A stretch of 46,671 nucleotides of DNA, taken from the NCBI GenBank assembly GCA_030877765.1, contig GCA_030877765.1_4853.1. One strand, 5' to 3'. Positions 1,291-34,205 of this stretch are shown here, piece by piece. The DNA comes from a phage. The notes beneath the pieces are model-generated. The model did not search any database. It was not told where the DNA came from and saw nothing but the letters and a program-made list of their open reading frames with translations. How positions within the stretch are numbered: the stretch's first letter is position 1; each line of letters starts with the position of its first letter. The position numbers were made by a program, and so were the translations under genes.

Positions 1291-1797
1291 TCAGAACGGA
1301 ATGTCGTCGTCGAAGTCAATCGGCGGCTCATTGCCTCCTTGTGGGCTTTGTTGTTTTTGTGGCTGTTGTTGTTGCGGATTTGTCCCCCATCCACCTTGAG
1401 GTTGCTGTCCTGATTGCTGGCGTGGTTGTTGCTGATCAGAATCATCACGTCTACCACCAAGCATCTGCATAACACCACCCATCTGCGGAATGACAATCTC
1501 AGTGGTGTATTTGTCCACGCCGTTGCTGTCAGTCCACTTACGAGTGCGTAGCTGGCCTTCGATATAAACCTGAGAACCTTTGCGAAGGTATTCGCCTGCA
1601 ATCTCAGCAAGTTTCCCGAAGATGACCACGCGATGCCACTCGGTCTGTTCTTTCTTTTCTCCTGTCTGCTTATCTTTCCACTGCTCAGATGTTGCAACAG
1701 AAAGGTTGGCAATTGAAGAGCCTGATGCTGAATATTTAACTTCAGGATCGTTTCCGAGGGTACCGACAATAATTACTTTATTTACGCCGCGTGCCAT
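1291..1797 (-). CDS. ssb: Single-stranded DNA-binding protein
   Basis: OB-fold SSB N-terminus ([18 protein letters not shown]...[12 protein letters not shown]), Gly/Gln-rich tail, acidic C-terminus DFDDDIPF. Confidence 0.95.
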
Positions 1798-1800
1798 TTA

Positions 1801-2850
1801 TTAAAATCCTTCAATTGGAGTTGGTTTATGTTCGGTTTTTGTTTCTTCCTGCTGTTCTGGCTGATGATGTTGCGGTTTAGCCAGTTTTGCAGGGTTGAAA
1901 TTATCCTGTGGAGTTATTACCACAGGAGGTAATTGCTCATCATTGATAAAAGACTCAATGCGATCATATTCAGCAGCAGAAGCAGCGAGAGAAGGCCATA
2001 TTGCACGAATCTTATCTTTCAGGTTATCAGGTATTGATTTCGCCTCTTCCTTCAGTCCTTCCATTCCTTTTGCTGCTGAAAGCTGAAGTCGTGAGCGCCA
2101 TGATTCAAACTCTTCGTCAACTTTAACACCAGAGTCCACCCATTTGATGAGTCCTCGACCATGAGCCTCTCCAATATAGCCATGACGAACGCTTTCACGA
2201 CCAGACTCAAAGAAGATGGGGCGTAGCTCTTCTGGTAATTTGGTGAACTCCTGAATTTTTCCTCCATCGTGCATCATCATGCTCACGGTCATCTCGAACA
2301 TGAAATCTTTCTCGCACACTGGCTGTAACCCAAGTGATACAGGTTCCTTCGGGTTTGCGAAGTCAGTTTTCTGGCGAGCGCGAAGACAGACAATGATATG
2401 CATATCGCTTTGTAGCATGGCATTCATGAACTTCTTGTGTTCAGCTTTGGCGCGCTTCCAGTCAGCCATCTTTTTACCGTTAAGCAGCGGCTTTTCAGCA
2501 ATCTCCGTGCAACTGCCTTCACCTTCCCATTCATGCGAACCTGAATCAATAACAAGAACCTTAACGCCGGCAGCCTGAAACTCTTCAATGGCCTGACGGT
2601 AACGGGCCGGGCTGAATGGAGCATACATATCAGCGTGCAGGAATTTGCCATCAAGGATGTTTGAGTACAGGCGACCGCGACCATTTTCAGTATCAAGGAA
2701 TCCGATTTCTTCTGGTGAGTCAACCATCCCGCGAGCCAGCTTAAGTGCGCTGTATGTTTTTCCGCTACCAGACTGGCCTGAAATACCGATGACTACACGA
2801 GAACCTGAACGCTCTGCTGGTTTAATATTGAGAATACCCATTTTCATCAC
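1801..2850 (-). CDS. RecA-like/AAA ATPase (recombination/replication); true start probably ATG at 2841
   Basis: Walker A GISGQSGSGKTYSALKLARG; Walker B-like hydrophobic strand plus D; GAGGTG RBS 8 nt before the 2841 ATG. Confidence 0.75.
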   Translation of the reverse strand: MMKMGILNIKPAERSGSRVVIGISGQSGSGKTYSALKLARGMVDSPEEIGFLDTENGRGRLYSNILDGKFLHADMYAPFSPARYRQAIEEFQAAGVKVLVIDSGSHEWEGEGSCTEIAEKPLLNGKKMADWKRAKAEHKKFMNAMLQSDMHIIVCLRARQKTDFANPKEPVSLGLQPVCEKDFMFEMTVSMMMHDGGKIQEFTKLPEELRPIFFESGRESVRHGYIGEAHGRGLIKWVDSGVKVDEEFESWRSRLQLSAAKGMEGLKEEAKSIPDNLKDKIRAIWPSLAASAAEYDRIESFINDEQLPPVVITPQDNFNPAKLAKPQHHQPEQQEETKTEHKPTPIEGF

Positions 2851-2858
2851 CTCACTAA

Positions 2859-3803
2859 TTATAAATTAAACTGTTTTTTGAACCATTCAGGCGTTTCCAT
2901 TTCTATGACAGGATTACCCATTGAATAACCGGGCCACGAATTGGCTTTTTTGCACGCCTTGTAAATTTCCATAGCGCCATGCAACTGAATTCGACCGATG
3001 CGTAATTGCTCTTCAGTCAAGCGAATTAACGCAGGAATAAATGGTGCTTTCTTTTCCTGAACGAGAAGATTAACAGAGCGTGGCGCATGACCATATGCCG
3101 CAACAAACATGTCGTGCTGCATCGCCATTTTCATAAAGTACCCAAGTCTCGCAGCATGACGGAAAAACTCTTCTGGCTTGGCGCTCACCGCTGTTTTGTA
3201 GTCGATGATGTCGCCACCTTTGGTAAGGCAGTCAAAGCGAACTTTTGCCTTCTCTCCGTTAAGTTCACCTAGAATTGACACTTCAGCATAAGCACCAGCG
3301 AGAAGACTGCTGTAATAGCTGTTTGCGTGGATTACAGCACGCATTTGCTGAATAGCGTCATAATCACCACCTTCCAGCATTTGCTTTCCTACAGCAGCTT
3401 TTTCAGCCTCTTCACGGATGACATCGTAAATTTTCACTGGCTCGCCAGTCGCCTGGATGATTTTGATCACCTCAGCTTTCGACTTTCCTGAAAGTCCTTT
3501 GATGCCTCGTTCTTTTGCCCATGAGTTCATATCACTTACAGTAACAAGCAGGTCATCACCAAAATCTTCTTTGGTTGGCATTCGTGCATATTCAGCATCA
3601 AAACGCTCTGGTTCAAGCAACGCAGTATGGCTACCTGTACCGAATATAAGAGCTTTTGATTGCTCATCCTCTTCGTCTTTGTATCGCCATGCTGCCGGGC
3701 ATCTGTCAAGTATATTCCATAATCCAGAACCATTAATGTGCTCTGTGTCAGCATGATAATCCTGATTGCTTAATTCATTGTTGAAATAAACTCTCATCAT
3801 CAC
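2859..3803 (-). CDS. PD-(D/E)XK family nuclease (RecB/Cas4-like exonuclease)
   Basis: GGDIIDYKT motif with downstream acidic residues; same operon as ATPase and SSB as in phage recombination modules. Confidence 0.65.
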   Translation of the reverse strand: MMMRVYFNNELSNQDYHADTEHINGSGLWNILDRCPAAWRYKDEEDEQSKALIFGTGSHTALLEPERFDAEYARMPTKEDFGDDLLVTVSDMNSWAKERGIKGLSGKSKAEVIKIIQATGEPVKIYDVIREEAEKAAVGKQMLEGGDYDAIQQMRAVIHANSYYSSLLAGAYAEVSILGELNGEKAKVRFDCLTKGGDIIDYKTAVSAKPEEFFRHAARLGYFMKMAMQHDMFVAAYGHAPRSVNLLVQEKKAPFIPALIRLTEEQLRIGRIQLHGAMEIYKACKKANSWPGYSMGNPVIEMETPEWFKKQFNL

Positions 3804-4426
3804 TCTCCGTGGTTACAGAATTCTTTATGCATCTTTTCTCTGAATTTCATCACAGACAACCTCGCTCTCTCAATATCATTGAATAACCCAAGATGGTATC
3901 TTTTCCCGTTAACATCACAGTAAGCATGCCACTTTTTAACCTGTTTTTGCCAATACACACCTTTAACTCCTGATGTGTTATTTTTTGGTTTTTTAGCGTT
4001 ATACTGGTTCTGCATATTTGTTGCGATTCTTAAGTTGCAAATCCTGTTATCGTCACGCACACCGTTAATGTGATCAATTTGACCTTCAGGCCAGAAACCA
4101 TAATAAATCAACCATACCAAGCGATGCGCGTAGTATCTTTTATTATTTATGCTTATCTCTATGTATCCGTTATGTTTTTTCCTGCCAGCGACACTACCCT
4201 TTCTTACACCTCCACCCGTCTTATTTCTAATGAAAACCCCTGTTTCATGGTTGTAATTTAAGCTATCCAAAACAACATAACGTGGTATTCTTTTTCTTCT
4301 TCCTATGGTGTTTGACTCTGCACTTCCCTGAGCAAAATCTTGCTTTTGCAGTTCCGATAAACTCATTTCCACAAACCTCGCACTTCTTAACGGTGATAGC
4401 CATTTCTTACCCTCTATTGTAATCAT
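3800..4426 (-). CDS. HNH-AP2 homing endonuclease (paralog 1 of 4)
   Basis: AHRLVWLIYYGFWPEGQIDHINGVRDDNRICNLR (HNH) followed by NTSGVKGVYWQKQVKKWHAYCDVNGKRYHLGLF (AP2). Confidence 0.85.
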   Translation of the reverse strand: MITIEGKKWLSPLRSARFVEMSLSELQKQDFAQGSAESNTIGRRKRIPRYVVLDSLNYNHETGVFIRNKTGGGVRKGSVAGRKKHNGYIEISINNKRYYAHRLVWLIYYGFWPEGQIDHINGVRDDNRICNLRIATNMQNQYNAKKPKNNTSGVKGVYWQKQVKKWHAYCDVNGKRYHLGLFNDIERARLSVMKFREKMHKEFCNHGE

Positions 4427-4471
4427 TTTCCGTTACATTGCAAGTAACTTTTATTTGTTACTAACGATACA

Positions 4472-4897
4472 TTAATCTACGTCATCCAGCAAGCCAAAAT
4501 AGAAAAGCGTGGCTTTTTTTAATTCATCAAGCCCATAAGCTATGGCAGCATAATGACCAAGCCTGCACATCTCTGTTAGCACTGCTGATTGATCCTTGCT
4601 CACCCTGCTTTTGCTTTTATCGCGGCGCTTTGCTTCAATCATCCCACAACTGTGATTTACCCCCGGAGTCATTATCACATTGTCGCCTATACCAGCCTTA
4701 ACCCCCATCTTCTGGCGCTTCAGCACAAACTGCACCCTGCTTGATGTGCCAGTTTCGTTGGGTACATGAAACCACAGAACATCAGGGAAGCGGTGTTGCA
4801 TCCATGTTCCATAACCCATCTGGTCAGTCTCCTCTTTTGGGCATTCTCCTCGATAACCGCTATCAAATACCCATATACCGCTATCAAGCTGCTTCAC
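4472..4897 (-). CDS. VRR-NUC domain nuclease
   Basis: FHVPNE ... GMIEAKRR pattern typical of VRR-NUC (PD-(D/E)XK fold). Confidence 0.65.
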   Translation of the reverse strand: MKQLDSGIWVFDSGYRGECPKEETDQMGYGTWMQHRFPDVLWFHVPNETGTSSRVQFVLKRQKMGVKAGIGDNVIMTPGVNHSCGMIEAKRRDKSKSRVSKDQSAVLTEMCRLGHYAAIAYGLDELKKATLFYFGLLDDVD

Positions 4898-4907
4898 TTT
4901 GTTATCC

Positions 4908-6812
4908 TTAAAATTCTTTTCGGTGGATTATGTCGCGACCTTTATCATTAATACGATGCGTGATGCGTTTTGGCGCTTTAATCAACCCCGCATACATCAT
5001 GAACTGCTTGGCGTTCTGGTATTTCAATATTTTCCCAGCCATTGACTTATCATCAAGGTGTGGGAATACAGCCTTTGCCTTGAACATGTTTTTCATGTGA
5101 GTTGCGCCGCCATAAGGGTAGAAAACTTCATTAGCCCAGCCTTCTTTGCCATCACAACGGTTAATCCAGTAGCGATATAAAATCCCCTCTCCGTCCTTCG
5201 TTAGTTGAACCTTGAAATCCATAACATCAGCCCACTCGTTATCTGTATAAGCACGCTCATTCAGTGCCGAATTAGGGTCGCGCAACACGTGATCGCAATG
5301 TCTGCAATAGCGCGCAGTGGGGTCGTTTTTAGTGCCGCAACCATCATCAAAAATCCGGATTCCGTGCTTATCAAAACCGCAACGGATGTAACTGAAAAAT
5401 TCTTCGCAGCGACCATCTGGAGATAGCGGGTCTTTCCCTATGCATCGACGCGCATATGGGCTGTTCATTGTTCCACATGTATGACACGGAACTTGTTCGC
5501 CACTGCGTTTTGAACGTTGCGCTTCAGCCTCTTCCAGAATCGGGTCTTCATACAGCTGACCAAGCTCAAACATCGTGCCAGAGAAATCAAGAACCAGATG
5601 GTCTTCTTTATGATACCCGGCATCAATTTGCTCTTTCTTCAGTAGGCGCATTCCGCGACCAAGAAGCTGGACAAGGAGAGTTAGCGACATTATTTTTCGC
5701 AATATGCAGCTCGTATCCCATAACGGTATATTTACGCCAGTGGTAAGGGCGGCTATCTGGAATGTGAATTTTTTACGCCCGGTGTATGCATCTTTTAGAG
5801 CCTTCCTTCTGGCTTTTGACCCCATATCTTCTGTAACTATTGAATAACTTCCTTCGGGTAGGTATTTTGCCGCCTCCTGACAATGTTTTTTACCAGCACA
5901 TGTAATCAGTACGCCGTTTCTGTTTTTAGTCAACTCCATAACCTTGAGCATGATTTTCTGCGTCAACGTACCTTGCTCAAGAATTTCTTTCTGCATCTGC
6001 TTGAGCTGCTCGGCGGTAAAGTCCTGAGTACCATCAACATCTGAACCATGAAAATCCGAAAGGTCATAATGCAGACTATCAACATCATGAAGACCAAAAA
6101 TTGTTGGAACAAGAAAACCGTTTTCAACCATGTACTTGGTGTCTATGTTGATAATCTCTTTCTTCCAGAAAGCGCCTTTTATTGATGTAGTTCCGCGAAA
6201 CGGTGAGCCTGTATAACCTATTATTCTCAACTCATGGCCATGCTTATCTTTACACCTTTTCATTAGCTCATTAATTATCACTGCATACTGCGTATCACCA
6301 TTATTAACAACATCAATGTCATTAACCATATGATTTTCATCGATCAGCAGGAATCTTGGGCAAAAGTCAGAGAGCGCACCTTTTGCAATAACATTCCCAT
6401 GCTCATCTTTTTTATCAAACAAAGCATTTACAACAGTACCCTCAGAACCACAGATTATTGGGTACGTAGAACTTTTCCTACCCAACGAAGCACTGAATAG
6501 CGAGTTTCTAACACCAAGCAACCATAGCTCTTCCGCATCTTGCTCCACTATTTCGCCCTGTCTTGATAAAATCATCCCTGAATAGCCCATCTCCTGAAAA
6601 CGCTTTGCTATCATGGCAATCATCAGTGACTTTCCGCTACCGACACTTGCTGTTACATAGCTTGGGCCAACATAATGACGAATCACATCGCCAGTTAACT
6701 TATATATCAACCACTGATAGGGTCTTGGCTCGATATCACCAGTATCCAGATAAGATTTCAGCAGATTAATATCAATCTCTGAAATCATTTTGTCGATTTT
6801 ATGCATTACCAA
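4908..6812 (-). CDS. SF2 DEAD/DExH-box DNA helicase with C-terminal Cys-rich zinc-finger region
   Basis: Walker A ASVGSGKSLM, DExH box LLIDENHMV, helicase C-domain motifs, C-terminal CHTCG...CRHCDH clusters. Confidence 0.85.
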   Translation of the reverse strand: MVMHKIDKMISEIDINLLKSYLDTGDIEPRPYQWLIYKLTGDVIRHYVGPSYVTASVGSGKSLMIAMIAKRFQEMGYSGMILSRQGEIVEQDAEELWLLGVRNSLFSASLGRKSSTYPIICGSEGTVVNALFDKKDEHGNVIAKGALSDFCPRFLLIDENHMVNDIDVVNNGDTQYAVIINELMKRCKDKHGHELRIIGYTGSPFRGTTSIKGAFWKKEIINIDTKYMVENGFLVPTIFGLHDVDSLHYDLSDFHGSDVDGTQDFTAEQLKQMQKEILEQGTLTQKIMLKVMELTKNRNGVLITCAGKKHCQEAAKYLPEGSYSIVTEDMGSKARRKALKDAYTGRKKFTFQIAALTTGVNIPLWDTSCILRKIMSLTLLVQLLGRGMRLLKKEQIDAGYHKEDHLVLDFSGTMFELGQLYEDPILEEAEAQRSKRSGEQVPCHTCGTMNSPYARRCIGKDPLSPDGRCEEFFSYIRCGFDKHGIRIFDDGCGTKNDPTARYCRHCDHVLRDPNSALNERAYTDNEWADVMDFKVQLTKDGEGILYRYWINRCDGKEGWANEVFYPYGGATHMKNMFKAKAVFPHLDDKSMAGKILKYQNAKQFMMYAGLIKAPKRITHRINDKGRDIIHRKEF

Positions 6813-7069
6813 ATCCTCGCACCAAGACGTTCAATTGTTTGTTTCTTTGTTTCATCATCTATTCCGCTATAAAAATACATATAACTAAGATTCCATAGAT
6901 AATCTTCTGGTCGCTCATCGGCAAACAAATCATCCCACTCAAAAATCCATTCTCCAGTTCTCTGTCTTCTGTATATGGTTAGCCATGTATTGCTTCGTGG
7001 CGGGTATCCGAAGGCAACAGGGATTGGCTTGCCATGAAAAATCCTCTTAAAAATGCTATCAAGGAACAC
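6806..7069 (-). CDS. Hypothetical protein (87 aa)
   Basis: ORF in operon orientation, overlapping the helicase start. Confidence 0.45.
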   Translation of the reverse strand: MFLDSIFKRIFHGKPIPVAFGYPPRSNTWLTIYRRQRTGEWIFEWDDLFADERPEDYLWNLSYMYFYSGIDDETKKQTIERLGARIW

Positions 7070-7084
7070 TGCTATATCCTTTTA

Positions 7085-7125
7085 TTGATGTTTCTACGTC
7101 AGTTAGCTTATACTCAATCTACACC
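7085..7125 (+). promoter_or_regulatory. Sigma70-like promoter for the primase gene
   Basis: TTGATG, 18 bp, TATACT, then AATCTACACC at the predicted start region. Confidence 0.4.
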
Positions 7126-7144
7126 AACAATCAAGGGTAAATTT

Positions 7145-8098
7145 ATGAGATACGACTGGAAAGACATTGAGCCAAAAATGATCGGAAATTGGCAAGCTGC
7201 CATCATGTCTATCGTCAATGTGGATAGCAGAGTTTTCAATGGCAAGCACCAGCCATGCCCGTCATGCTCAGGAAAAGACAGGTATCGCTTTGATGACAAC
7301 TTCGAAACAAAAGGCGATGGCGGCGCAATCTGCAATCAGTGCGGTTCCGGCAGCGGCATGAATTGGCTGATGAAACTCTCCGGAATGAGCTTTCCTGAAG
7401 CGCTGGAGGCACTTGGTGGATTCCTGAATATGCACCCGCGTGAAAAGCTGGAGGCAATCAGGAAAGAGCTACCGAAGATAAATCACAGCGATGACTTCAT
7501 CACCGAGCAGGAAGTCGCAGCAATCATGGCTAAAACGACTCGTGTCGCGATGAATGAGTGGACTTTGATAAATGGTATTGGTTGCGACGTTAACGTCACC
7601 AGAGGCAAATCTGGAGAACTTATTGCGGTTGAGATGATGCGAGCTGACACAATGAAACTGTGCAACGTGGCATTCATTGGCATGGATGGTGATTCAATCA
7701 GAACGTTTTTCCGCGCAGGATACAACAAGGACTCAGCCATCAACGGCAAACTCACGCGCGGCGCGATAAGCCCAATCGGAGAAGACAACGGGAAGTTCAT
7801 TTACCTGGTATCTGATTATGCCGATGCGTGGAAATGCCACTACTTCACTGGCGCTCATGCCTGGTGCTGCTGGTCGCCGGAAAACATGTGGGAGGTTGTG
7901 CGCTCGGTTAGCGATGAAACGAAGGCGAGATTGCGCTGCATAGTTAATTATAAATTCGACGAACTTTGCGCTGCGGAAAATGCAGGGCTTCCGGTGATGC
8001 TTCCTGATGATGCTGAAACAATAAGGATGGCAAAGAGAATCAGGAGAAAGATTTATGACGCTGGCGAGCTGATAGAGAAAATGCCAGTAAGCAGATAA
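7145..8098 (+). CDS. DNA primase-like protein with N-terminal zinc-binding domain
   Basis: CPSCSGKDRYRFDD...GGAICNQCGSGSGMNWLMKLSGMSFPEALEAL resembles phage primase zinc ribbon; ATG 7145 has a GGGT RBS; track ORF start at 7034 is probably too long. Confidence 0.6.
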   Translation: MRYDWKDIEPKMIGNWQAAIMSIVNVDSRVFNGKHQPCPSCSGKDRYRFDDNFETKGDGGAICNQCGSGSGMNWLMKLSGMSFPEALEALGGFLNMHPREKLEAIRKELPKINHSDDFITEQEVAAIMAKTTRVAMNEWTLINGIGCDVNVTRGKSGELIAVEMMRADTMKLCNVAFIGMDGDSIRTFFRAGYNKDSAINGKLTRGAISPIGEDNGKFIYLVSDYADAWKCHYFTGAHAWCCWSPENMWEVVRSVSDETKARLRCIVNYKFDELCAAENAGLPVMLPDDAETIRMAKRIRRKIYDAGELIEKMPVSR

Positions 8099-8103
8099 AA
8101 TAA

Positions 8104-8127
8104 ACCATCCGACTGGAGGGTTTTTGT
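8104..8127 (+). terminator. Putative terminator after primase
   Basis: Imperfect stem ccatcc/ggaggg followed by TTTTTGTT. Confidence 0.4.
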
Positions 8128-8477
8128 TATGCTTTGATGTTAACTTTTATTGCGAACACTTCCACCGGGTCAGGACCGAAGTGTGGGTGGGTGATGGTCT
8201 TAACCGTCCATCCATCGTATGGGATATCAATACGCCTGGATTTATCGTCCTTCTTTGGATATCCTTTTGTGATAATTAACCTTTCGTACTTCCTTCCAAT
8301 CTGTCCGCTGTCTTTAAAGTTAATAAGGCGCTTCTTCCAGTAGTCATTAAAAAGGCGATACTCTTCCGTTTTCTCTCCGCGAATCATGGCATCGAAGTAT
8401 TCACCTTTGACAGCAAGTTGCAGGTTAGCCATTACCGCGCCTCCAGTCTCCATACCGCCTGACCATCCGGCTGGCAT
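8127..8477 (-). CDS. ASCH domain protein
   Basis: GEKTEEYR motif typical of ASCH; likely start at MANLQLAVKGEYF. Confidence 0.5.
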   Translation of the reverse strand: MPAGWSGGMETGGAVMANLQLAVKGEYFDAMIRGEKTEEYRLFNDYWKKRLINFKDSGQIGRKYERLIITKGYPKKDDKSRRIDIPYDGWTVKTITHPHFGPDPVEVFAIKVNIKA

Positions 8478-8688
8478 AGGTGTCTTTGGATACCGCTCCG
8501 TCTTTAGCCAGCTTCATAAGAATTTTTCGCAAATCTGCCGAACGCCATTCTTCATCAGGAAATTCCTTCTCCATTGCCAACCGCAAATTCCATGTTGCTA
8601 TCCTGAATGGATATTCCCCGCCGAGAGCTTTCTCTTGCAGGGCAGCCCGGGAACGCATCACCTGCAAAACCTTCTCTTTTACATCCAT
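8425..8688 (-). CDS. Hypothetical protein (87 aa)
   Basis: ORF in operon orientation. Confidence 0.4.
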   Translation of the reverse strand: MDVKEKVLQVMRSRAALQEKALGGEYPFRIATWNLRLAMEKEFPDEEWRSADLRKILMKLAKDGAVSKDTYASRMVRRYGDWRRGNG

Positions 8689-8698
8689 TTCCTTACCC

Positions 8699-8890
8699 TC
8701 ACTTAATCATCAATTTTGAAATGTCAACATAACCAACAGAAAATCTGTGCCAGTAATCATCAAGTACGTGGTAATTAGATCGAATCCATACTTTGTTAAT
8801 CCCAGACCAGAAAAACCACGTCGAATAACCATACGGTCTGAAATTCCATGAGCCTTCTGAGCGGCAAAGTTCGCCTGATATTGTTATCAT
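8699..8890 (-). CDS. Hypothetical protein (63 aa)
   Basis: Short ORF in operon orientation, ATGA overlap with the upstream gene. Confidence 0.3.
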   Translation of the reverse strand: MITISGELCRSEGSWNFRPYGYSTWFFWSGINKVWIRSNYHVLDDYWHRFSVGYVDISKLMIK

Positions 8891-10443
8891 TTCAACCTCG
8901 GATTTATGTGAACAGTGTTTCCGATAAATACGCAGTAACCATCCTCTTCAAGTGATGGCAATACACTTGATCTGAGTCGGTCATAAATTTTAGGTATCCC
9001 TTTGAATGGTCGCACGTTTTTAAGTGAATCATAAAGCCACTTCACCGTTACGCTATTTTTCCCTTTCTGAGCGGCGGAGCGTAGTTTTTCGGCAACAACA
9101 TCAAACTCAGATCGTTCACCAGCATACCCATTTGATTCAACAGCATCAGTGAACGTTTTTGTCAGTGCGTCATAAACACTGATGGCGCGACTAATTTCAT
9201 TTTCACCGATAATCTTTGAACGCTTTCCTCCATCGCACCAGTTTTCAGCAGCGTGAAATATTGCTGCCAGACGTATTATTTGCTTATCAGCTTTACCCAT
9301 CGCGCCACGAAGAAGAACGTGGTCCCACTTACCGCCGGGAAGGAAGTTTTTCTCCCACTGATTTCGTAACAGGCCGATCATTCTTGCTGAGTCATTGTGA
9401 AGCGTCAGTTTTGTTTTTTCTGCTGACACAACATTATGTATAAATCTTGCATATTCCGACCTCAAGCTGTCTGGCATTGGCTTGCTTACAGGGCAATCAT
9501 TAACCATGTCCCAGTGTTCGCGATAGCCAAGCATTGATTGCTCTCGCAACATCAGGAAACGTTCAGAAAGACCGTTCCCCCTGTCGCCAGCGGCAAGAAT
9601 GGCATCAATACTTTCATCCTGCGCAATCACACTTATGTTTCCAAGCACGTAACCAGATGAAACGCCACGACCAACACGAGCAGAGCCAATGAATCCGCCA
9701 TCCCATCCCTTCAGGATGACTTCGGCGTTTGCCTTTCCACCTTCCTTTCCGTAAGAGAGGCCAAGACATGTGTTAAGAACGCTTGCCTCGTCACTTATCA
9801 GATTAAAAAAGCCACCTTCATGGATTGCCTGATGCTGAACAGCCTCCGGCGTTGCGTCAGTAAGTGGGTATGTAATCGTATAAAGCTCTTCCAGCTTCTC
9901 CTTTTCCCGAGCAATATCGTCGCCGATTAGTGCCTTTGCATTCTGATTGCTGGCCTCTTTATATGCCTTCATCAATTCTTCAATGCGAAGATTTATTTTT
10001 ATGATCTGCTTTTCCATCTTTTTGGAAAGGTTGTCATATTCAATCTTCACCGGATTCATGTGCATTGAGTTGATAGCGGTTTTCCCTGCTGATGGAGGCT
10101 GAGAAGTAACCACGTAAAGAGAAACTGGAAGCTCTGAATGGTAATACTCAACGCTAAAGTTTCTCGTCATTGCGCTGGCGACGCAACCAAGTAAATGCAT
10201 GAACGATGTATTTATTGGGAACTGAACTGCGCGAGCTGCAGCGATTGCATAACGAGACAGCAAATCAGTCCTGTGCTCACTGGTCAGTTCTGTTTCTGAA
10301 TACGTTACATCACGCTCCTTACCTTCCTTGATGTCCAGCCACATATTTGAGCTTGGTATCATGCCATAATGGAAGGCAACGCGAGCCGGAGATACTTTCA
10401 ATTCCCTTGCTTCGTTGAAGATGTCTTGAGCTGTGATCATCAT
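8887..10443 (-). CDS. Large replication-associated protein with P-loop (possibly DUF3987-like primase/helicase-associated)
   Basis: 518 aa, first large gene of the leftward operon next to the iteron region; P-loop-like SQPPSAGKT. Family assignment is uncertain. Confidence 0.55.
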   Translation of the reverse strand: MMITAQDIFNEARELKVSPARVAFHYGMIPSSNMWLDIKEGKERDVTYSETELTSEHRTDLLSRYAIAAARAVQFPINTSFMHLLGCVASAMTRNFSVEYYHSELPVSLYVVTSQPPSAGKTAINSMHMNPVKIEYDNLSKKMEKQIIKINLRIEELMKAYKEASNQNAKALIGDDIAREKEKLEELYTITYPLTDATPEAVQHQAIHEGGFFNLISDEASVLNTCLGLSYGKEGGKANAEVILKGWDGGFIGSARVGRGVSSGYVLGNISVIAQDESIDAILAAGDRGNGLSERFLMLREQSMLGYREHWDMVNDCPVSKPMPDSLRSEYARFIHNVVSAEKTKLTLHNDSARMIGLLRNQWEKNFLPGGKWDHVLLRGAMGKADKQIIRLAAIFHAAENWCDGGKRSKIIGENEISRAISVYDALTKTFTDAVESNGYAGERSEFDVVAEKLRSAAQKGKNSVTVKWLYDSLKNVRPFKGIPKIYDRLRSSVLPSLEEDGYCVFIGNTVHINPRLK

Positions 10444-10679
10444 GAAATCCTTTTTACGTAAACCATGTCTTTATCAGGGTATCCAACCTTTGTTGAGAAT
10501 TTCATTCCTTCATTCCTGCGCATGAAGTAGTTTAATGCGTTCCTCAGGTTTGCAATTCCTCCAAACCTCTTCGAGTTAATCATCACAGTCTCACCTACTG
10601 AAACCGCCGACAACCCAGAAAGAGCTGCATTCTTTTTGCCGTACTTGTCAAGTTTCACAAAAGCCTCCAACAGCAACAA
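10440..10679 (-). CDS. Small hypothetical protein (N-terminus uncertain; likely the 47-aa product from internal ATG near 10583)
   Basis: Track ORF begins at a TTG; internal ATG (MINSKRFGG...) has a GGTGA RBS. Confidence 0.3.
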   Translation of the reverse strand: MLLLEAFVKLDKYGKKNAALSGLSAVSVGETVMINSKRFGGIANLRNALNYFMRRNEGMKFSTKVGYPDKDMVYVKRIS

Positions 10680-10730: not shown

Positions 10731-11040
10731 CTCACGTGGGTAGCGTGGGGAAGCCGTGGGGAACATCACCTTCCCCACGAAGTTTCACTCTAAGTATATG
10801 TAATATAATATAATTATTATTATTTGGGTTAATGGGTAATATTATTATTCATATTATAGATAGTAATTAACATAATATTAACAAATGGATTATTTGAATA
10901 TATTTATAAGGGGATGGGTATGAAATCTTCCCCTTTTTACCCACGAAAAATAAAAACATTAAAATCAATTATTTACGATGAAAAACGTGGGGCAACTGAC
11001 CTTCCCCACGGCTTCCCCACGGGTAAAAATTTACCCCACG
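10731..11040. repeat. Iteron array flanking an AT-rich core (candidate origin/operator region)
   Basis: About nine copies of (T)YCCCCACG(G) or its complement CGTGGGG in both orientations at 10732-10779, 10939-10946 and 10986-11040, either side of a ~140-bp AT-rich stretch (10795-10935). Confidence 0.7.
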
Positions 11041-11063: not shown

Positions 11064-11092
11064 TTGACGTAGAATCACAACTGATGTAGATT
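11064..11092 (+). promoter_or_regulatory. Rightward early promoter
   Basis: TTGACG (11064-11069), 17-bp spacer, TAGATT (11087-11092); GAGGG RBS and ATG at 11123 downstream. Confidence 0.55.
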
Positions 11093-12695: not shown

Positions 12696-12849
12696 ACAGA
12701 AAGTCTGGCAACTCGCAAAGCAGCACGAATTAGACGATTTCATCGAGAAGGTTGCAAAGACATTCCCTGACGCGCTTGAAGTCGTTCATGTGCAGACGCG
12801 AAATGAAAATGCATGGTGCTACACAAAAAATCATACAAATGGTAGATGA
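12682..12849 (+). CDS. Hypothetical small protein (55 aa)
   Basis: ATG at 12682 within track ORF 12616-12849. Confidence 0.3.
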   Translation: MQTTKQKVWQLAKQHELDDFIEKVAKTFPDALEVVHVQTRNENAWCYTKNHTNGR

Positions 12850-13276
12850 AATGAAGCTAACAAAAAAACAACGCGAAGAGCTACGCATGAAGTTCGGTGG
12901 TCGCTGTGCTTATTGTGGGTGTGAGCTACCCGAGAAAGGTTGGCATGCAGACCATGTTGAACCAGTGCTACGTAAATCTGAGCAGTGCATGAAGGCAGCG
13001 GCGAAAGGGATTTTCAAGCTGAAGGCAACCGGTGAGCTATATCGACCAGAAGCAGAGCGACTGGAAAACCTTTACCCTGCGTGCGCCCCCTGCAATCTGA
13101 TGAAAACTTCCTATTCCCTGGAAATGTTCAGGAAGCAGGTATCTCTTCAGGTTGCTCGTGGGCGCAAAAGCAGCATGAATTTCCGCACTGCAGAGCGTTT
13201 CGGTCTTATCGCCGTGGTGGAGAAACCAGTTGTTTTCTGGTTTGAGAAATACCAGGAAGAGAACGAAAAAAAATAA
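12839..13276 (+). CDS. HNH endonuclease (terminase-associated type)
   Basis: CAYCGCEL...HADHVEPV...ENLYPACAPCNLMK: Cys4-type HNH motif, positioned just upstream of the terminase genes. Confidence 0.8.
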   Translation: MVDEMKLTKKQREELRMKFGGRCAYCGCELPEKGWHADHVEPVLRKSEQCMKAAAKGIFKLKATGELYRPEAERLENLYPACAPCNLMKTSYSLEMFRKQVSLQVARGRKSSMNFRTAERFGLIAVVEKPVVFWFEKYQEENEKK

Positions 13277-14019: not shown

Positions 14020-14532
14020 ATGCGACCCTTAAAAGAAGAAAAACTCACGCAAGACAGGCTGAAAGAGTTGCTGCATTATAACCATGATACTGGTATTTTC
14101 ACATGGGTTCAGCGCGCCTCAAAAAGCGTAAGAGTTGGTAATTCAGCTGGCAGTAAGAATAAGTCAGGCTATATAGATATACGCATCGATAAGTCTTTAC
14201 ACAAAGCTCATCGGCTTGCGTGGCTTTACATTTATGGTGTGTGGCCCAATGGGAAAATAGATCACATCAATAACGTGAAGACAGATAACAGAATCTGCAA
14301 CCTGAGAGAAGCAAGCAATAATGAAAACGGATGGAATGCTGGTAAACCATCGACAAATACGTCAGGAGTAAAAGGTGTGAGTTGGGATGCAGAGAAAAAT
14401 AAATGGAAGGCGCATTGCAGGGTTTTTGGGAAAAAATATACAGTAGGTAGGTTTTCATCAAAAGAATATGCTGAGAGAGCCGTGGCGGAGTTCAGAGAGA
14501 AACATCACGGGGAGTTTTTTAATCATGGCTAG
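14020..14532 (+). CDS. HNH-AP2 homing endonuclease (paralog 2 of 4), between terS and terL
   Basis: AHRLAWLYIYGVWPNGKIDHINNVKTDNRICNLR followed by NTSGVKGVSWDAEKNKWKAHCRVFGKKYTVGRF. Confidence 0.85.
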   Translation: MRPLKEEKLTQDRLKELLHYNHDTGIFTWVQRASKSVRVGNSAGSKNKSGYIDIRIDKSLHKAHRLAWLYIYGVWPNGKIDHINNVKTDNRICNLREASNNENGWNAGKPSTNTSGVKGVSWDAEKNKWKAHCRVFGKKYTVGRFSSKEYAERAVAEFREKHHGEFFNHG

Positions 14533-23121: not shown

Positions 23122-23423
23122 TATTTAATCTCTCCGTTCAGTTCATTAACAATTAACGTTGCATAGCCAGCAATATCTTTCCAGCTGTCATCATAAGTCG
23201 GGTCGCCATTCAGAATGCGCCCAATCTTGTGCTGAATCATGTCGAGCGCCTCGCGTTGACTTGGTGTGAGATTGCGCCAGCCATCTACCTTGCGCATCAC
23301 ATCTTTCAACTCCTGCATAATTTCAGCGCCGTCTTTGAATTTACCGTATCGACTACCGCGTTCGGTGATGAGTCGCTCTGTTGCGTCAGTATGGCGCTTA
23401 TCGCCCGTGATTTGTGAACTCAT
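23121..23423 (-). CDS. Hypothetical protein (100 aa)
   Basis: Operon-coupled ORF. Confidence 0.45.
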   Translation of the reverse strand: MSSQITGDKRHTDATERLITERGSRYGKFKDGAEIMQELKDVMRKVDGWRNLTPSQREALDMIQHKIGRILNGDPTYDDSWKDIAGYATLIVNELNGEIK

Positions 23424-23910
23424 TGTGATGCATTCTCCTGAATTCTTTTATTTTTGCTTCTGCTTCTCTTATGTCGGAAAAGTAACCAACTGTGAATCTT
23501 TTGCCATTTACTCCAACTCTTGCATGCCACTTGTTGTGCGATGAACTCCAGTTAACCCCCTTGATACCGCTAGTGTTGTTTTTGTTCATTGCTTTGTTGT
23601 GGCTATTCTCAAATTTGCTGGCCTCCCTTAAATTGCACGCCCTGTTGTCATTGCGAATGCCATTAATGTGGTCAATCATTTCACTTGCTGGCGCGCCATG
23701 AATGCATATCCATGCCAATCTGTGAGCAAGAAAAGCCCTACCGCAAAGAATTATTTGCACATATCCATCTGGCTTTAAGTAGCCAGCCACACTCCCTTTT
23801 TCTGCAATCCTATTCCTTGTCTTTAGCCATTTAAATTCCCCAGTTAGTGGATTGTAGTAAAGGTAACTCAATATAAACTCCCTACTCGGCTCATCTCTCC
23901 TATGCCTCAT
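23398..23910 (-). CDS. HNH-AP2 homing endonuclease (paralog 3 of 4)
   Basis: AHRLAWICIHGAPASEMIDHINGIRNDNRACNLR followed by NTSGIKGVNWSSSHNKWHARVGVNGKRFTVGYF. Confidence 0.85.
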   Translation of the reverse strand: MRHRRDEPSREFILSYLYYNPLTGEFKWLKTRNRIAEKGSVAGYLKPDGYVQIILCGRAFLAHRLAWICIHGAPASEMIDHINGIRNDNRACNLREASKFENSHNKAMNKNNTSGIKGVNWSSSHNKWHARVGVNGKRFTVGYFSDIREAEAKIKEFRRMHHNEFTNHGR

Positions 23911-32967: not shown

Positions 32968-33777
32968 TCACATCTTCTCCAGAATTGCCATAACCTCGTG
33001 AATGTCAGCAACAGGAATCTGAATAAATTCCTCATCCTCTGCCACCACATGACCAGCAGGGAGAATTACATGGTCAGCTGGCTTCAGTAACTCAATCAGG
33101 CGGTCTACTGGCTTAATCTTTTTCGACTTCAGCACTTTGGCTGTGACCTTATCCTTGCCTTGCGCCTTCGCTTCTTCGACCGCTTCGTCGATAACTTTTA
33201 CCGCATCATCTCCATGTTCGCGCGTTACCGCTACGGCATTTGCATAGCTGATCTGTCCGGCACTGATTCGCGCTTTTACTTCCGCAGGCACATCACCCAA
33301 CGACAGGTGCATTTGCACGTCAGATACTGAGCGGCCTACCTTCTTGGCGATTTCCTCGTTTGTCCAGCCAAAACCTTTCAGACGCGTGTAAGCCTTTGCG
33401 CGTTCAAACGGGTCAAGTTGCTTGCCCTGACTTGATGACACCATGAATGCGATTTTGTCAGCCTCGTCGCCAGTAAAATCCTTACACTCAATGCGAACGA
33501 TTGGTGCGCCGCGCTCAATGGCTCGCAATGCGCCGAGGTAGCGATGCTGCCCATCAAGAATGCGGATACCTTTATCGTCAGGAATAACTGTTAATGCTGG
33601 CAATGGCTGACCTGACTCCCAGCACTGCGCGAAATATTCCACATGCTGCTCATCTGCTTCACGGATGTTGTATCCCGGCTCCAGATAGATTTGCTCTACT
33701 GGCACGAGGTAGGTTTTGTTAACAGCGATACCGTTACGCGTTTCTTTGTCTGAATAGATTTTGCTTAGTGTTTTCAT
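32968..33777 (-). CDS. ParB N-terminal domain (ParB/Srx-like) nuclease-type protein
   Basis: ILDGQHRYLGALRA motif; central HTH-like segment (EEIAKKVGRSVSDVQ). Confidence 0.7.
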   Translation of the reverse strand: MKTLSKIYSDKETRNGIAVNKTYLVPVEQIYLEPGYNIREADEQHVEYFAQCWESGQPLPALTVIPDDKGIRILDGQHRYLGALRAIERGAPIVRIECKDFTGDEADKIAFMVSSSQGKQLDPFERAKAYTRLKGFGWTNEEIAKKVGRSVSDVQMHLSLGDVPAEVKARISAGQISYANAVAVTREHGDDAVKVIDEAVEEAKAQGKDKVTAKVLKSKKIKPVDRLIELLKPADHVILPAGHVVAEDEEFIQIPVADIHEVMAILEKM

Positions 33778-34118: not shown

Positions 34119-34159
34119 TTTCATCACCTCTAATATTTATTGTTGTTTCTACGTCACTA

Positions 34160-34205
34160 ACTATAAACGCACCACCAATCTACGTCAACAGGAATATGCT
34201 AAAAT
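34160..34205. promoter_or_regulatory. Divergent promoter pair (duplicate of 20932-20977)
   Basis: Minus strand TTGACG, 17 bp, TATAGT; plus strand extended -10 TGcTAAAAT. Confidence 0.6.

Follow-up and report, generated by a model that had tools for sequence, protein, structure and literature searches.

Results and discussion

A single rightward primase gene within a leftward block

The window, by which we mean the whole 46,671-nt stretch of phage DNA that was analysed, contains a 9.4-kb leftward block (1291-10679) with one inverted gene, and we consider it likely that this is a stand-alone primase gene forming its own rightward unit, that its product has a DUF3987 helicase as partner, and that its orientation goes back to an ancient, fixed inversion. 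Among the homology-supported genes of the block, the primase-like gene is the only one on the plus strand, as the earlier note had read from the sequence. That note spoke of a 9-kb leftward operon; what the sequence shows is a block of co-oriented genes, which need not be a single transcript. The interval it had singled out (7085-8127) runs exactly from the predicted promoter of the gene to its predicted terminator. The observation of a lone inverted primase is correct but already known and annotated: as far as their sequences tell, the layout is conserved and annotated in dozens of related phages. The features are collected in Table 1.

Table 1 Features of the primase region (positions in the window).
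Feature	Position	Strand	Description and support
Primase-like CDS	7145-8098	+	317 aa; Pfam PF08273, PHROG 510, annotation 'DNA primase' in relatives
Predicted sigma-70-like promoter of primase	7085-7114	+	TTGATG, 18-nt spacer, TATACT; 9/12 consensus positions
TCTACRNCA motif, two copies	7093-7101 (promoter spacer), 7118-7126 (around expected transcription start)	+	Genome-wide motif
Predicted bidirectional intrinsic-terminator hairpin	8102-8123	both	9-bp stem, 4-nt loop; predicted by folding
ASCH-domain gene	8127-8432	-	Convergent primase neighbour; annotated in relatives, PHROG 625
DUF3987 (SF6-type) helicase gene	8887-10443	-	PF13148 E 1.3e-34; PHROG 2373 'DNA helicase'
87-aa hypothetical gene	6806-7069	-	Divergent neighbour; PHROG 5903; annotated in relatives
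SF2 (RadD-like) helicase gene	4908-6812	-	Helicase_C, ResIII; synteny

The open frame on the plus strand extends from 7034 to 8098, the actual start being the ATG at 7145, which has AAGGG at 7133-7137 on its 5' side and opens the same CDS as in the annotations of near-identical and related phages. We rejected the start at 7034 that is given for C1, since it precedes the conserved promoter and the 37-codon extension it adds overlaps the divergent minus-strand gene and is not conserved in relatives. This 87-aa gene is the first of the leftward helicase-recombination-SSB unit, and in relatives its slot is either empty or taken by an HNH endonuclease. The SF2 helicase gene that follows matches the RadD model with an E-value of 3.9e-53, which is below the cutoff, and is divergent from the primase gene in Jersey-like, T1-like and Kosakonia phages alike. 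On the other side the primase gene faces the ASCH gene across a gap of 28 nt filled by the hairpin, an arrangement that predicts the convergent transcription suggested previously. Further upstream on the minus strand, the DUF3987 helicase sequence includes a Walker A motif (PPSAGKT).

Protein family, fold and predicted partner

The description of the gene as zinc-finger primase-like is borne out by its family matches. Pfam Zn_Ribbon_Prim (PF08273) is matched at aa 33-72 (nt 7241-7360) over the full profile (1-37) with an E-value of 4e-12 and 46.7 bits against a cutoff of 23, and PHROG 510 'DNA primase' with an E-value of 2.6e-80; NCBIfam has no model for the protein. The zinc ribbon, whose ligands C38, C41, C63 and C66 are conserved throughout the clade (145 of 145 members), is followed by a helical linker and an RNA-polymerase-like domain. 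The TOPRIM-like part of this domain covers aa ~215-287 (nt 7787-8005), and the Pfam Toprim models do not detect it. Homologues are encoded in 1368 phage records, and none of the other ORFs among the 29 scanned in the window is a primase candidate.

Homology over the whole primase domain links the protein to alpha of phage P4, a member of the EGYATA family together with plasmid TraC and Sog, which likewise combines a zinc ribbon with a TOPRIM-type primase domain. BLASTP aligned aa 13-251 to residues 13-242 of the P4 alpha N-terminus (25% identity, E 1e-18), tblastn gave a match to P4 with an E-value of 5e-12, and the family profile recovered P4 alpha-type relatives. Unlike P4 alpha, which also carries a D5N/SF3 helicase and an origin-binding domain, the 317-aa protein stands alone. 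Neither the protein nor the family profile found anything meaningful among PDB sequences, so that it was fold comparison alone that connected the protein to solved primases. The top 14 PDB fold matches of the confident AF2 model (pLDDT 84.9) are T4 gp61, Aquifex DnaG, T7 gp4, Twinkle, and the P. aeruginosa and E. coli DnaG (for the latter, the DnaG core), with the best matches all DnaG-type primases and Foldseek probabilities of 0.95-1.0 for DnaG-type structures; the global TM-scores are low (about 0.3), which is consistent with a different placement of the domains in the model. In the TOPRIM part, the elements follow each other as beta 219-222, alpha 225-235, beta 238-241, alpha 246-254, beta 263-266 and alpha 271-280. 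The modelled protein has the architecture of DnaG-type enzymes, such as the T7 gp4 primase fragment, T4 gp61 and the Aquifex and E. coli DnaG, with an N-terminal zinc-binding domain before a TOPRIM-fold polymerase domain, although there is no detectable sequence similarity to these solved primases and their Glu and DxD are not conserved in it.

The distant relatives point to a partner. Three out of ten (P0168, P0180 and P0182) are fusions of Zn_Ribbon_Prim, Toprim_3 and DUF3987, of the kind found in mobile elements and prophages, and the family profile aligns to their 280 N-terminal residues with an E-value of about 1e-24. The domain set is the same in the window, but is divided there between two genes on opposite strands. 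With fused forms among its relatives and a DUF3987 ATPase gene nearby, the 317-aa protein would be the split-off primase half of such primase-helicases, and its most likely role is to prime phage DNA synthesis jointly with the DUF3987 helicase, whose gene lies at a distance of 0.8 kb on the opposite strand. Proteins with DUF3987 usually occur as fusions with DnaG or AEP primases or have the gene of such a primase next to their own (PMC4889955), and a DUF3987 protein has been described as a 5'-3' helicase that binds its primase (PMC11724360).

The TOPRIM catalytic residues

The catalytic motifs of the TOPRIM domain are canonical in the DUF3987 fusions, whereas they are replaced in the protein studied here. 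The Glu expected at the end of beta-1 is Ser223, and EGYATA of P4 alpha aligns to SDYADA; the DxD after beta-3 reads N268-Y-K270, and the region of the third acidic motif (D[WF]ND) is deleted. The replacements of the Glu and the DxD are common to the phage clade, in which the Glu is found in only 4 of 152 members compared with 68 of 73 wider relatives, and the DxD in 2 of 152 compared with 61 of 73; ADYFD, DNWID and ANYID are among the variants of the EGYATA motif. Since both the Glu and the DxD are replaced, primase activity may be expected but is not assured, and no published primase assay for this clade was found in the literature.

It is conceivable, at rather less than even chances, that the Jersey-like/T1-like 'DNA primase' clade has kept the zinc ribbon and the TOPRIM fold while losing canonical primer synthesis. 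Its members would then either have a relocated metal site unlike that of any characterised DnaG-type primase, or be pseudo-primases confined to DNA recognition or the loading of the phage helicase, priming being left to host DnaG; we regard these two options, taken together, as a minority possibility. Apart from DNA recognition and helicase loading, a possible role of such a pseudo-primase would be to recruit host DnaG. Beyond the motif counts and the deletion given above, in 38 of 145 clade members neither of the two positions after beta-1 is acidic, and in the distant half of the clade no acidic TOPRIM column reaches 90% conservation, compared with 12 columns of the zinc ribbon that do; the blindness of the Pfam Toprim models to the domain points the same way. 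The primase activity of P4 alpha reportedly needs the Glu of EGYATA. Classical work reportedly showed that T1 needs host elongation genes for its DNA synthesis, a point that we do not count as evidence; searches of the literature on EGYATA and on the dependence of T1 on host dnaG gave nothing usable.

Several observations speak against a loss of function. The TOPRIM-like region is constrained in close relatives, with an Asp at 227 in 141 of 152 clade members, Asp or Glu at 272 in 130 of 145 and Glu or Asp at 278 in 139 of 145, and Y220, L221, H232, T235, N247 and A277 are also constrained in close relatives. The replacement of the Glu is paired with a T-to-D change at i+4, which looks like the relocation of a ligand rather than decay; this Asp is at the position that we take to be equivalent to D269 of E. 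coli DnaG. Similarly, D272 (D/E in 90%) could substitute for the DxD if the register shifts by two residues. In addition, no second primase was found in the window, and more than 1300 phage genomes have kept the gene. A stand-alone primase working with the DUF3987 helicase is the reading we prefer.

Predicted promoter, terminator and transcription units

The earlier note had also given the gene its own promoter and terminator and hence separate regulation, and conserved boxes and a conserved hairpin stem make a separate rightward unit probable. The consensus match of the promoter alone is not above chance, with 18 such sites found in the region against 23.9 expected. Its positions are nevertheless held in 9 relatives, the -35 element being invariant as TTG.T and the -10 element nearly invariant as TA.A.T while the spacer sequences diverge, and its spacing falls within the 16-18 nt of sigma-70 promoters. 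The TCTACRNCA motif, two copies of which accompany it, is matched exactly at 14 sites of the window, compared with 3.0 +/- 1.8 in shuffled sequences (19 compared with 6.0 if one mismatch is allowed). In relatives these sites hold their positions and the downstream copy hardly varies; the motif is a candidate operator or promoter signature. A ParB/KorB-like protein encoded at 32968-33777 is one candidate for a regulator acting at these sites. Host RNA polymerase would start the primase transcript at this promoter, with its two copies of a phage-wide motif.

[quoted passage not shown] It is flanked by an A-tract (8096-8104) and a T-tract (8121-8129), and either strand therefore reads a stem followed by a U-run, as is predicted for a G+C-rich bidirectional terminator. 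Skate is in agreement with this, its record annotating terminators on both strands 3' of the primase. The stem has one mismatch in the window, a C-to-A at 8107 that is private to it and breaks one pair; ST1UNAM, at 99.8% identity, carries the C. The mismatch halves the folding energy from -18.3 to -9.7 kcal/mol on the plus strand (-8.2 kcal/mol on the minus strand), and explains why a simple terminator scanner missed the hairpin in the window and detected it on both strands in the relative MK54. The perfect stem, AAACCCTCC/GGAGGGTTT, is found in 9 relatives with 6 different loops, and in SB28 an unrelated, non-homologous hairpin is present at the equivalent site. The case for a terminator is built on this stem, which is exactly conserved although its loops vary, and on SB28 with its independent hairpin; pair-covariation statistics on the hairpin alignment were not significant, and are uninformative because the stem is nearly invariant and the replacement hairpin of SB28 is out of register.

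Rightward transcription would end at this hairpin, which also faces the converging leftward genes. As U-tracts are read in both directions, it probably divides the leftward block as well, splitting the presumed operon into an upstream unit from DUF3987 through ASCH (10679 to 8127) and a downstream unit with the 87-aa gene, the helicase, nucleases, a recombinase and SSB (7069 to 1291). Transcription of the downstream unit would in that case have to begin within or close to the 75 nt between the divergent genes, next to the primase promoter. A leftward promoter for the helicase unit was looked for after the terminator and none was convincing; the weak candidates read by eye (TTGATT-16-TATAAG in the window, TTGACG-17-TAATTT in Skate) overlap the primase promoter on the opposite strand. 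No transcriptome, RNA-seq or Term-seq of a Jersey-like phage was found in the literature.

This lack of a clear leftward promoter downstream of the hairpin, the chance-level consensus match of the primase promoter and the weakened terminator of the window would all fit weak or inactive signals, with one long read-through transcript for the leftward genes and with primase expression that is low and constitutive or else held down by antisense transcription and colliding polymerases. We consider this unlikely, since the promoter hexamers and the hairpin are conserved in relatives and a different hairpin takes its place in SB28. Moreover, in the T1-like phages and Kc237 no leftward gene precedes the equivalent junction, so that leftward transcription must start there from a promoter. 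Separate rightward and leftward units, divided at the hairpin, therefore remain the preferred arrangement.

Relatives and origin of the inversion

HC6 and ST1UNAM share 99.8% identity with the window over 1.9 kb, and IME207 (Shuimuvirus) 94.2%. The three phages also share its gene order, which is that of a Jersey-like siphophage, a group that comprises Shuimuvirus and related genera and was formerly called 'Jerseyvirinae', and HC6 and ST1UNAM annotate exactly the same primase gene. More broadly, the 'DNA primase' of the Escherichia phages HC6 and C1 and of the Salmonella phages ST1UNAM, IME207, Skate, Vi II-E1 and Akira is the same gene at 88-99.9% nucleotide identity. All seven have the same lone inversion between the SF2 and DUF3987 helicases, with the same promoter boxes and terminator stem; only the window has the C-to-A in the terminator, and the accessory genes at the boundaries vary between phages. 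Synteny was compared in 10 Jersey-like and Klebsiella relatives, and the lone inverted primase holds its position in all of them, down to about 73% nucleotide identity. The primases of Drexlerviridae (T1-like, e.g. tonijn) and of Kosakonia phage Kc237 belong to the same clade at 30-33% identity over their whole length; they share its altered TOPRIM motifs and the divergent junction between the leftward SF2 helicase and the rightward primase. Rather than being a lone inverted gene, the primase of these phages stands at the head of a longer rightward unit, which has a regulator, the primase and a tail fibre in tonijn, and the primase, Dam and others in Kc237. In Vibrio phage F27, the DUF3987 helicase, primase, SF2 helicase and exonuclease follow in the same order, all on one strand.

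The collinear order of F27 and the junction shared with T1-like phages argue for an old in-place inversion of a resident gene, and the presence of the same layout in dozens of relatives makes it ordinary rather than a recent acquisition. The orientation would accordingly be an ancient, fixed inversion and not a recent import. The earlier note had instead suggested that the layout could reflect module acquisition; on this reading the primase would have come in horizontally as a separate module and kept its landing orientation. The opposite orientation, with its own promoter and terminator, would suit such an event, and so would the fact that in relatives both primase boundaries are insertion hot spots (HNH endonucleases, ASCH, EaA, DUF3850, DUF551). 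However, slot and orientation are identical in 10 of 10 relatives, the helicase/primase junction recurs in T1-like phages at 33% protein identity, F27 has the same order with a collinear primase, searches with only the primase match this siphophage group alone, whereas the matches to Stx prophages fall in the ASCH/EaA flank, and the composition of the gene is ordinary (GC 0.48 against about 0.46). Acquisition as a module is thus very improbable and the idea already largely refuted. A scan for repeats around the gene found short, chance-level ones only. The ASCH/EaA flank is 94-95% identical to Stx-converting and P22-like prophages; it is this segment that was recently exchanged, together with the homing-endonuclease genes at the primase boundaries of relatives.

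That the true gene is a longer leftward ORF and the plus-strand frame spurious, which the earlier note named as what would overturn it, is already refuted and has practically no probability left: short antisense ORFs exist and nothing more, the longest (7483-7800, 105 aa) has no family match, the plus-strand ORF is strongly backed by family, fold and synteny, and GC and AT skew change sign in 7001-8000 as expected for a plus-strand gene.

Significance

In a well-sampled group of phages the inverted primase is a fixed feature that is already annotated, and its import for genome organisation is small. The biochemistry could matter more: over 1300 phage genomes carry a 'DNA primase' gene without the canonical catalytic residues, and the priming of replication by its product in T1-like and Jersey-like phages is accordingly putative. 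At the boundaries of the primase, accessory genes and homing endonucleases are gained and lost. For annotating and engineering these phages, which are candidates for therapy, the 'leftward replication operon' is best handled as two or more units, split by what is predicted to be a two-way terminator.

Gene layout around the primase

By its sequence, the window is an essentially complete Jersey-like siphophage genome. The 1.9 kb around the primase gene are 99.8% identical to Escherichia phages HC6, 6947 and HC8A and to Salmonella phage ST1UNAM, and 94% identical to Salmonella phage IME207 (genus Shuimuvirus). The earlier note described the primase as the sole rightward gene in a leftward block, and both this layout and the stated location are confirmed: all other homology-supported genes within 1291-10679 lie on the minus strand, the longest antisense ORF within the primase gene (105 aa) has no family match and so does not replace it as the real gene, and both GC and AT skew reverse sign across 7001-8000, as expected of a plus-strand gene. 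Below the primase, the minus-strand genes are, in order, SSB, a Sak4-like ATPase, a PD-(D/E)XK exonuclease, an HNH-AP2 endonuclease, a VRR-NUC-like protein, a RadD-like SF2 helicase and an 87-aa protein, and beyond it ASCH, EaA, a 63-aa ORF, the DUF3987 helicase and a 79-aa ORF. The ATG preceded by AAGGG is the true primase start, giving a 317-aa CDS: this is the form annotated in IME207 and ST1UNAM, the family alignment begins there, and conservation in the alignment with relatives does not extend upstream of the promoter.

Coordinates of features in the window (strand in parentheses)
Feature	Position	Remark
Hairpin, tail-spike (+)/SSB (-)	1260-1281	AAACCCCGCC-CAGG-CGGGGTTT, T-rich flanks
Recombinase slot	1801-2850 (-)	Sak4-like P-loop ATPase, 349 aa
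HNH_3+AP2 homing-endonuclease genes	3800-4426 (-), 14020-14532 (+), 23398-23910 (-)
Further HNH gene	12752-13276 (+)
Primase ORF	7034-8098 (+)
Primase CDS	7145-8098 (+)	ATG at 7145
Candidate primase promoter	7085-7114 (+)	TTGATG-18 nt-TATACT
TCTACRNCA, primase promoter	7093, 7118	spacer; expected start
TCTACRNCA, similarly built promoter-like regions before other rightward genes	15974/15997, 34148/34179, 20951, 37202, 38595
TCTACRNCA, remaining sites	4476, 11073 (-), 11090 (-), 24149, 24182 (-)
Replaced TOPRIM motifs	7811-7825, 7946-7960	aa 223-227, aa 268-272
Convergent stop codons	8096-8098, 8127-8129	primase, ASCH
Prophage-like ASCH + EaA segment	~8320-8690 (-)
DUF3987 gene	8887-10443 (-)	Walker A motif
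CCCCACG cluster	10744-11040	both orientations
AT-rich stretch	10790-10900
Early rightward promoter	11064-11092
ParB/KorB-like HTH gene	32968-33777 (-)
Paired TCTACGTCA promoter	34140-34190

Synteny and origin of the orientation

A lone plus-strand primase between minus-strand SF2 helicase and DUF3987 genes was found in all ten relatives inspected (IME207, ST1UNAM, Skate, Vi II-E1, Akira, C1, SB28 and the Klebsiella phages MK54, KP591P3 and ZCKP8, the last three at about 73% nucleotide identity). In tonijn, a T1-like phage (33% protein identity), and in Kosakonia phage Kc237, the divergent helicase/primase junction matches that of the window, but the primase leads a longer rightward unit. Vibrio phage F27 (23% identity) carries DUF3987, primase, SF2 helicase and exonuclease VIII in the same order, although all on one strand. 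Considering the common layout, the shared junction and the collinear order in F27, the simplest reading is that a resident gene was inverted long ago and that its new orientation became fixed before these genera split. Acquisition of a module, which the earlier note had raised, is not supported, as slot and orientation are the same in all ten relatives and F27 has the same order on one strand. Many public genomes already contain and annotate this arrangement, so it is ordinary.

Variable, exchanged DNA is located at the two edges of the primase cassette. Between helicase and primase, there is either no gene, an 87-aa gene, or an HNH or endonuclease VII gene, and the slot between primase and DUF3987 holds ASCH, EaA, DUF3850 or DUF551 genes. 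The ASCH and EaA segment of the window shares 94-95% identity with Stx1/Stx2-converting lambdoid prophages, phage RCS47 and the P22-like ST104, which marks a recent swap of accessory "ea-region" genes between a virulent-type siphophage and temperate phages; the primase sequence itself matches this siphophage group only. The first HNH_3+AP2 gene of the window is absent at that position from the near-identical ST1UNAM, and CATTGCAAGTAAC, located upstream of it, recurs before endonuclease genes in Skate, Vi II-E1 and SB28. In these three phages and in ZCKP8, an HNH or endonuclease VII gene directly adjoins the primase promoter. The recombinase slot has the same Sak4-like ATPase in ST1UNAM and MK54 as in the window, and an Erf-like annealing protein in IME207, a non-orthologous replacement in an otherwise collinear module.

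Predicted promoter and terminator

The consensus match of the candidate promoter alone is not above chance (18 sites in 12.5 kb, 23.9 expected). When nine relatives are aligned with the window, the -35 TTG.T is invariant and the -10 TA.A.T nearly so, while the spacer falls into three differing sequence types. The promoter also carries two copies of a 9-11 nt motif, (AA)TCTACRNCA, which has 14 exact sites in the window where 3.0 +/- 1.8 are expected (19 against 6.0 with one mismatch allowed). Its sites lie in promoter-like intergenic regions, often paired (spacer and start site) or else some 55 nt ahead of strong TGTCAA...TATAAT promoters, and an inverted occurrence overlaps the early rightward promoter. 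They keep their positions in Shuimuvirus, Skatevirus and Klebsiella relatives, though not in T1-like phages. The motif probably represents either an operator bound by a phage regulator or a promoter signature specific to the clade, and its over-representation and conserved positions, together with the conserved hexamers, support a real, probably regulated primase promoter. The ParB/KorB-like HTH gene lies one gene from a paired promoter, and its product is a candidate for the regulator binding the motif. CCCCACG occurs eight times in the window (2.7 expected genome-wide), with seven copies clustered around the very AT-rich stretch between the leftward and rightward early genes; this region resembles a replication origin made up of iterons and an unwinding element, or else an early control region.

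The convergent stop codons of primase and ASCH are 28 nt apart, and the gap is taken up by a hairpin, AAACCATCC-GACT-GGAGGGTTT, with A-rich and T-rich runs on its flanks, so that a hairpin followed by a U-tract is read on either strand. The perfect stem AAACCCTCC/GGAGGGTTT is present in nine relatives with six different loops, and in SB28 an unrelated 11-bp hairpin takes its place, with the A/T flanks unchanged. Terminators are annotated on both strands in the Skate record, and in MK54 the perfect hairpin is detected on both strands by the scanner; covariation counting was uninformative. A C-to-A change at 8107, private to the window, breaks one pair of the conserved stem and lowers its stability from -18.3 to -9.7 kcal/mol (plus strand). 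Each of the nine relatives checked has C here, among them the 99.8%-identical ST1UNAM, and the change could be a sequencing error or a variant raising read-through.

If the hairpin works both ways, the leftward block would be split into at least two units, and the helicase-to-SSB unit would need its own start near 7070-7130. Only weak leftward promoter candidates were seen there; we infer such a start mainly because a leftward promoter must exist at the corresponding junction of the T1-like and Kc237 phages. The proposal of a separate, convergently transcribed unit with its own predicted promoter and terminator is reasonable, and conservation in relatives supports it. A second hairpin, at 1260-1281, also lies between convergent genes, so this genome may repeatedly place compact terminators where genes converge.

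The primase, its probable partner and its TOPRIM motifs

Pfam recognizes only the zinc ribbon of primase-helicases in the primase (aa 33-72, E 4e-12), while PHROGs assigns the whole protein to phrog_510, "DNA primase" (E 2.6e-80), and BLASTP aligns aa 13-251 with the primase domain at the N-terminus of P4 alpha (25% identity, E 1e-18). Sequence searches against solved structures gave no detectable match. The AlphaFold2 model, built with 26 homologues, is confident (pLDDT 84.9), and its best PDB fold matches are all DnaG-type primases (T4 gp61, Aquifex DnaG, T7 gp4, Twinkle, and P. aeruginosa and E. coli DnaG), with the RNase M5 Toprim domain lower in the list. The polymerase domain aligns with T7 gp4 across about 180 columns; global TM-scores reach only about 0.3, which fits a different placement of the zinc and polymerase domains by the model.

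Searching 1.84 billion representative proteins with a profile yielded 3642 relatives, 38 of them at E <= 1e-30. In all ten long, distant matches scanned for domains, a Zn_Ribbon_Prim-Toprim_3 N-terminus is fused to a helicase-type module: DUF3987 (3), DUF927 (4), DUF3631, VapE, or D5N/Pox_D5, the last being the fusion also found in P4 alpha. The DUF3987 gene of the window lies 0.8 kb from the primase. Both 5'-3' helicase activity and binding to the cognate primase have been demonstrated for DUF3987 proteins (PMC11724360), which are also described as replicative helicases fused to, or encoded beside, DnaG or AEP primases in phages (PMC4889955). Given these fusions, the nearby DUF3987 gene and this literature, we read the gene as encoding the priming half of a split primase-helicase; a scan for others gave no second primase candidate among the 29 window ORFs covered.

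The E-G-Y-A-T-A motif of P4 alpha, which holds the TOPRIM glutamate, aligns to S-D-Y-A-D-A in the primase, the residues aligned with the DxD motif following beta-3 are N-Y-K, and the region of the third acidic motif (D[WF]ND) is missing. Within the clade (the homologues from Jersey-like, Klebsiella, T1-like, Vibrio and Kosakonia phages), Glu at 223 is present in 4 of 152 sequences, against 68 of 73 more distant relatives, and DxD in 2 of 152 against 61 of 73; an Asp at 227 (i+4) is found in 141 of 152 against 2 of 73. Replacement of the canonical Glu and DxD is a property of the whole phage clade, and catalytic primase activity is thus predicted from homology. A remodelled active site or a non-catalytic role is the less likely reading. 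Replacement of the Glu paired with a Thr-to-Asp change at i+4 looks like ligand relocation, and closer relatives keep D227, D/E272 and E/D278 well. E. coli DnaG has both the Glu and the i+4 Asp, as EGYMD. In 38 of 145 clade members there is no acidic residue at either position after beta-1, and among the more distant half of its members, conservation of at least 90% is reached by 12 zinc-ribbon columns but by no acidic TOPRIM column. Of everything described here, only the degenerate TOPRIM motifs of the clade might be worth experimental effort.
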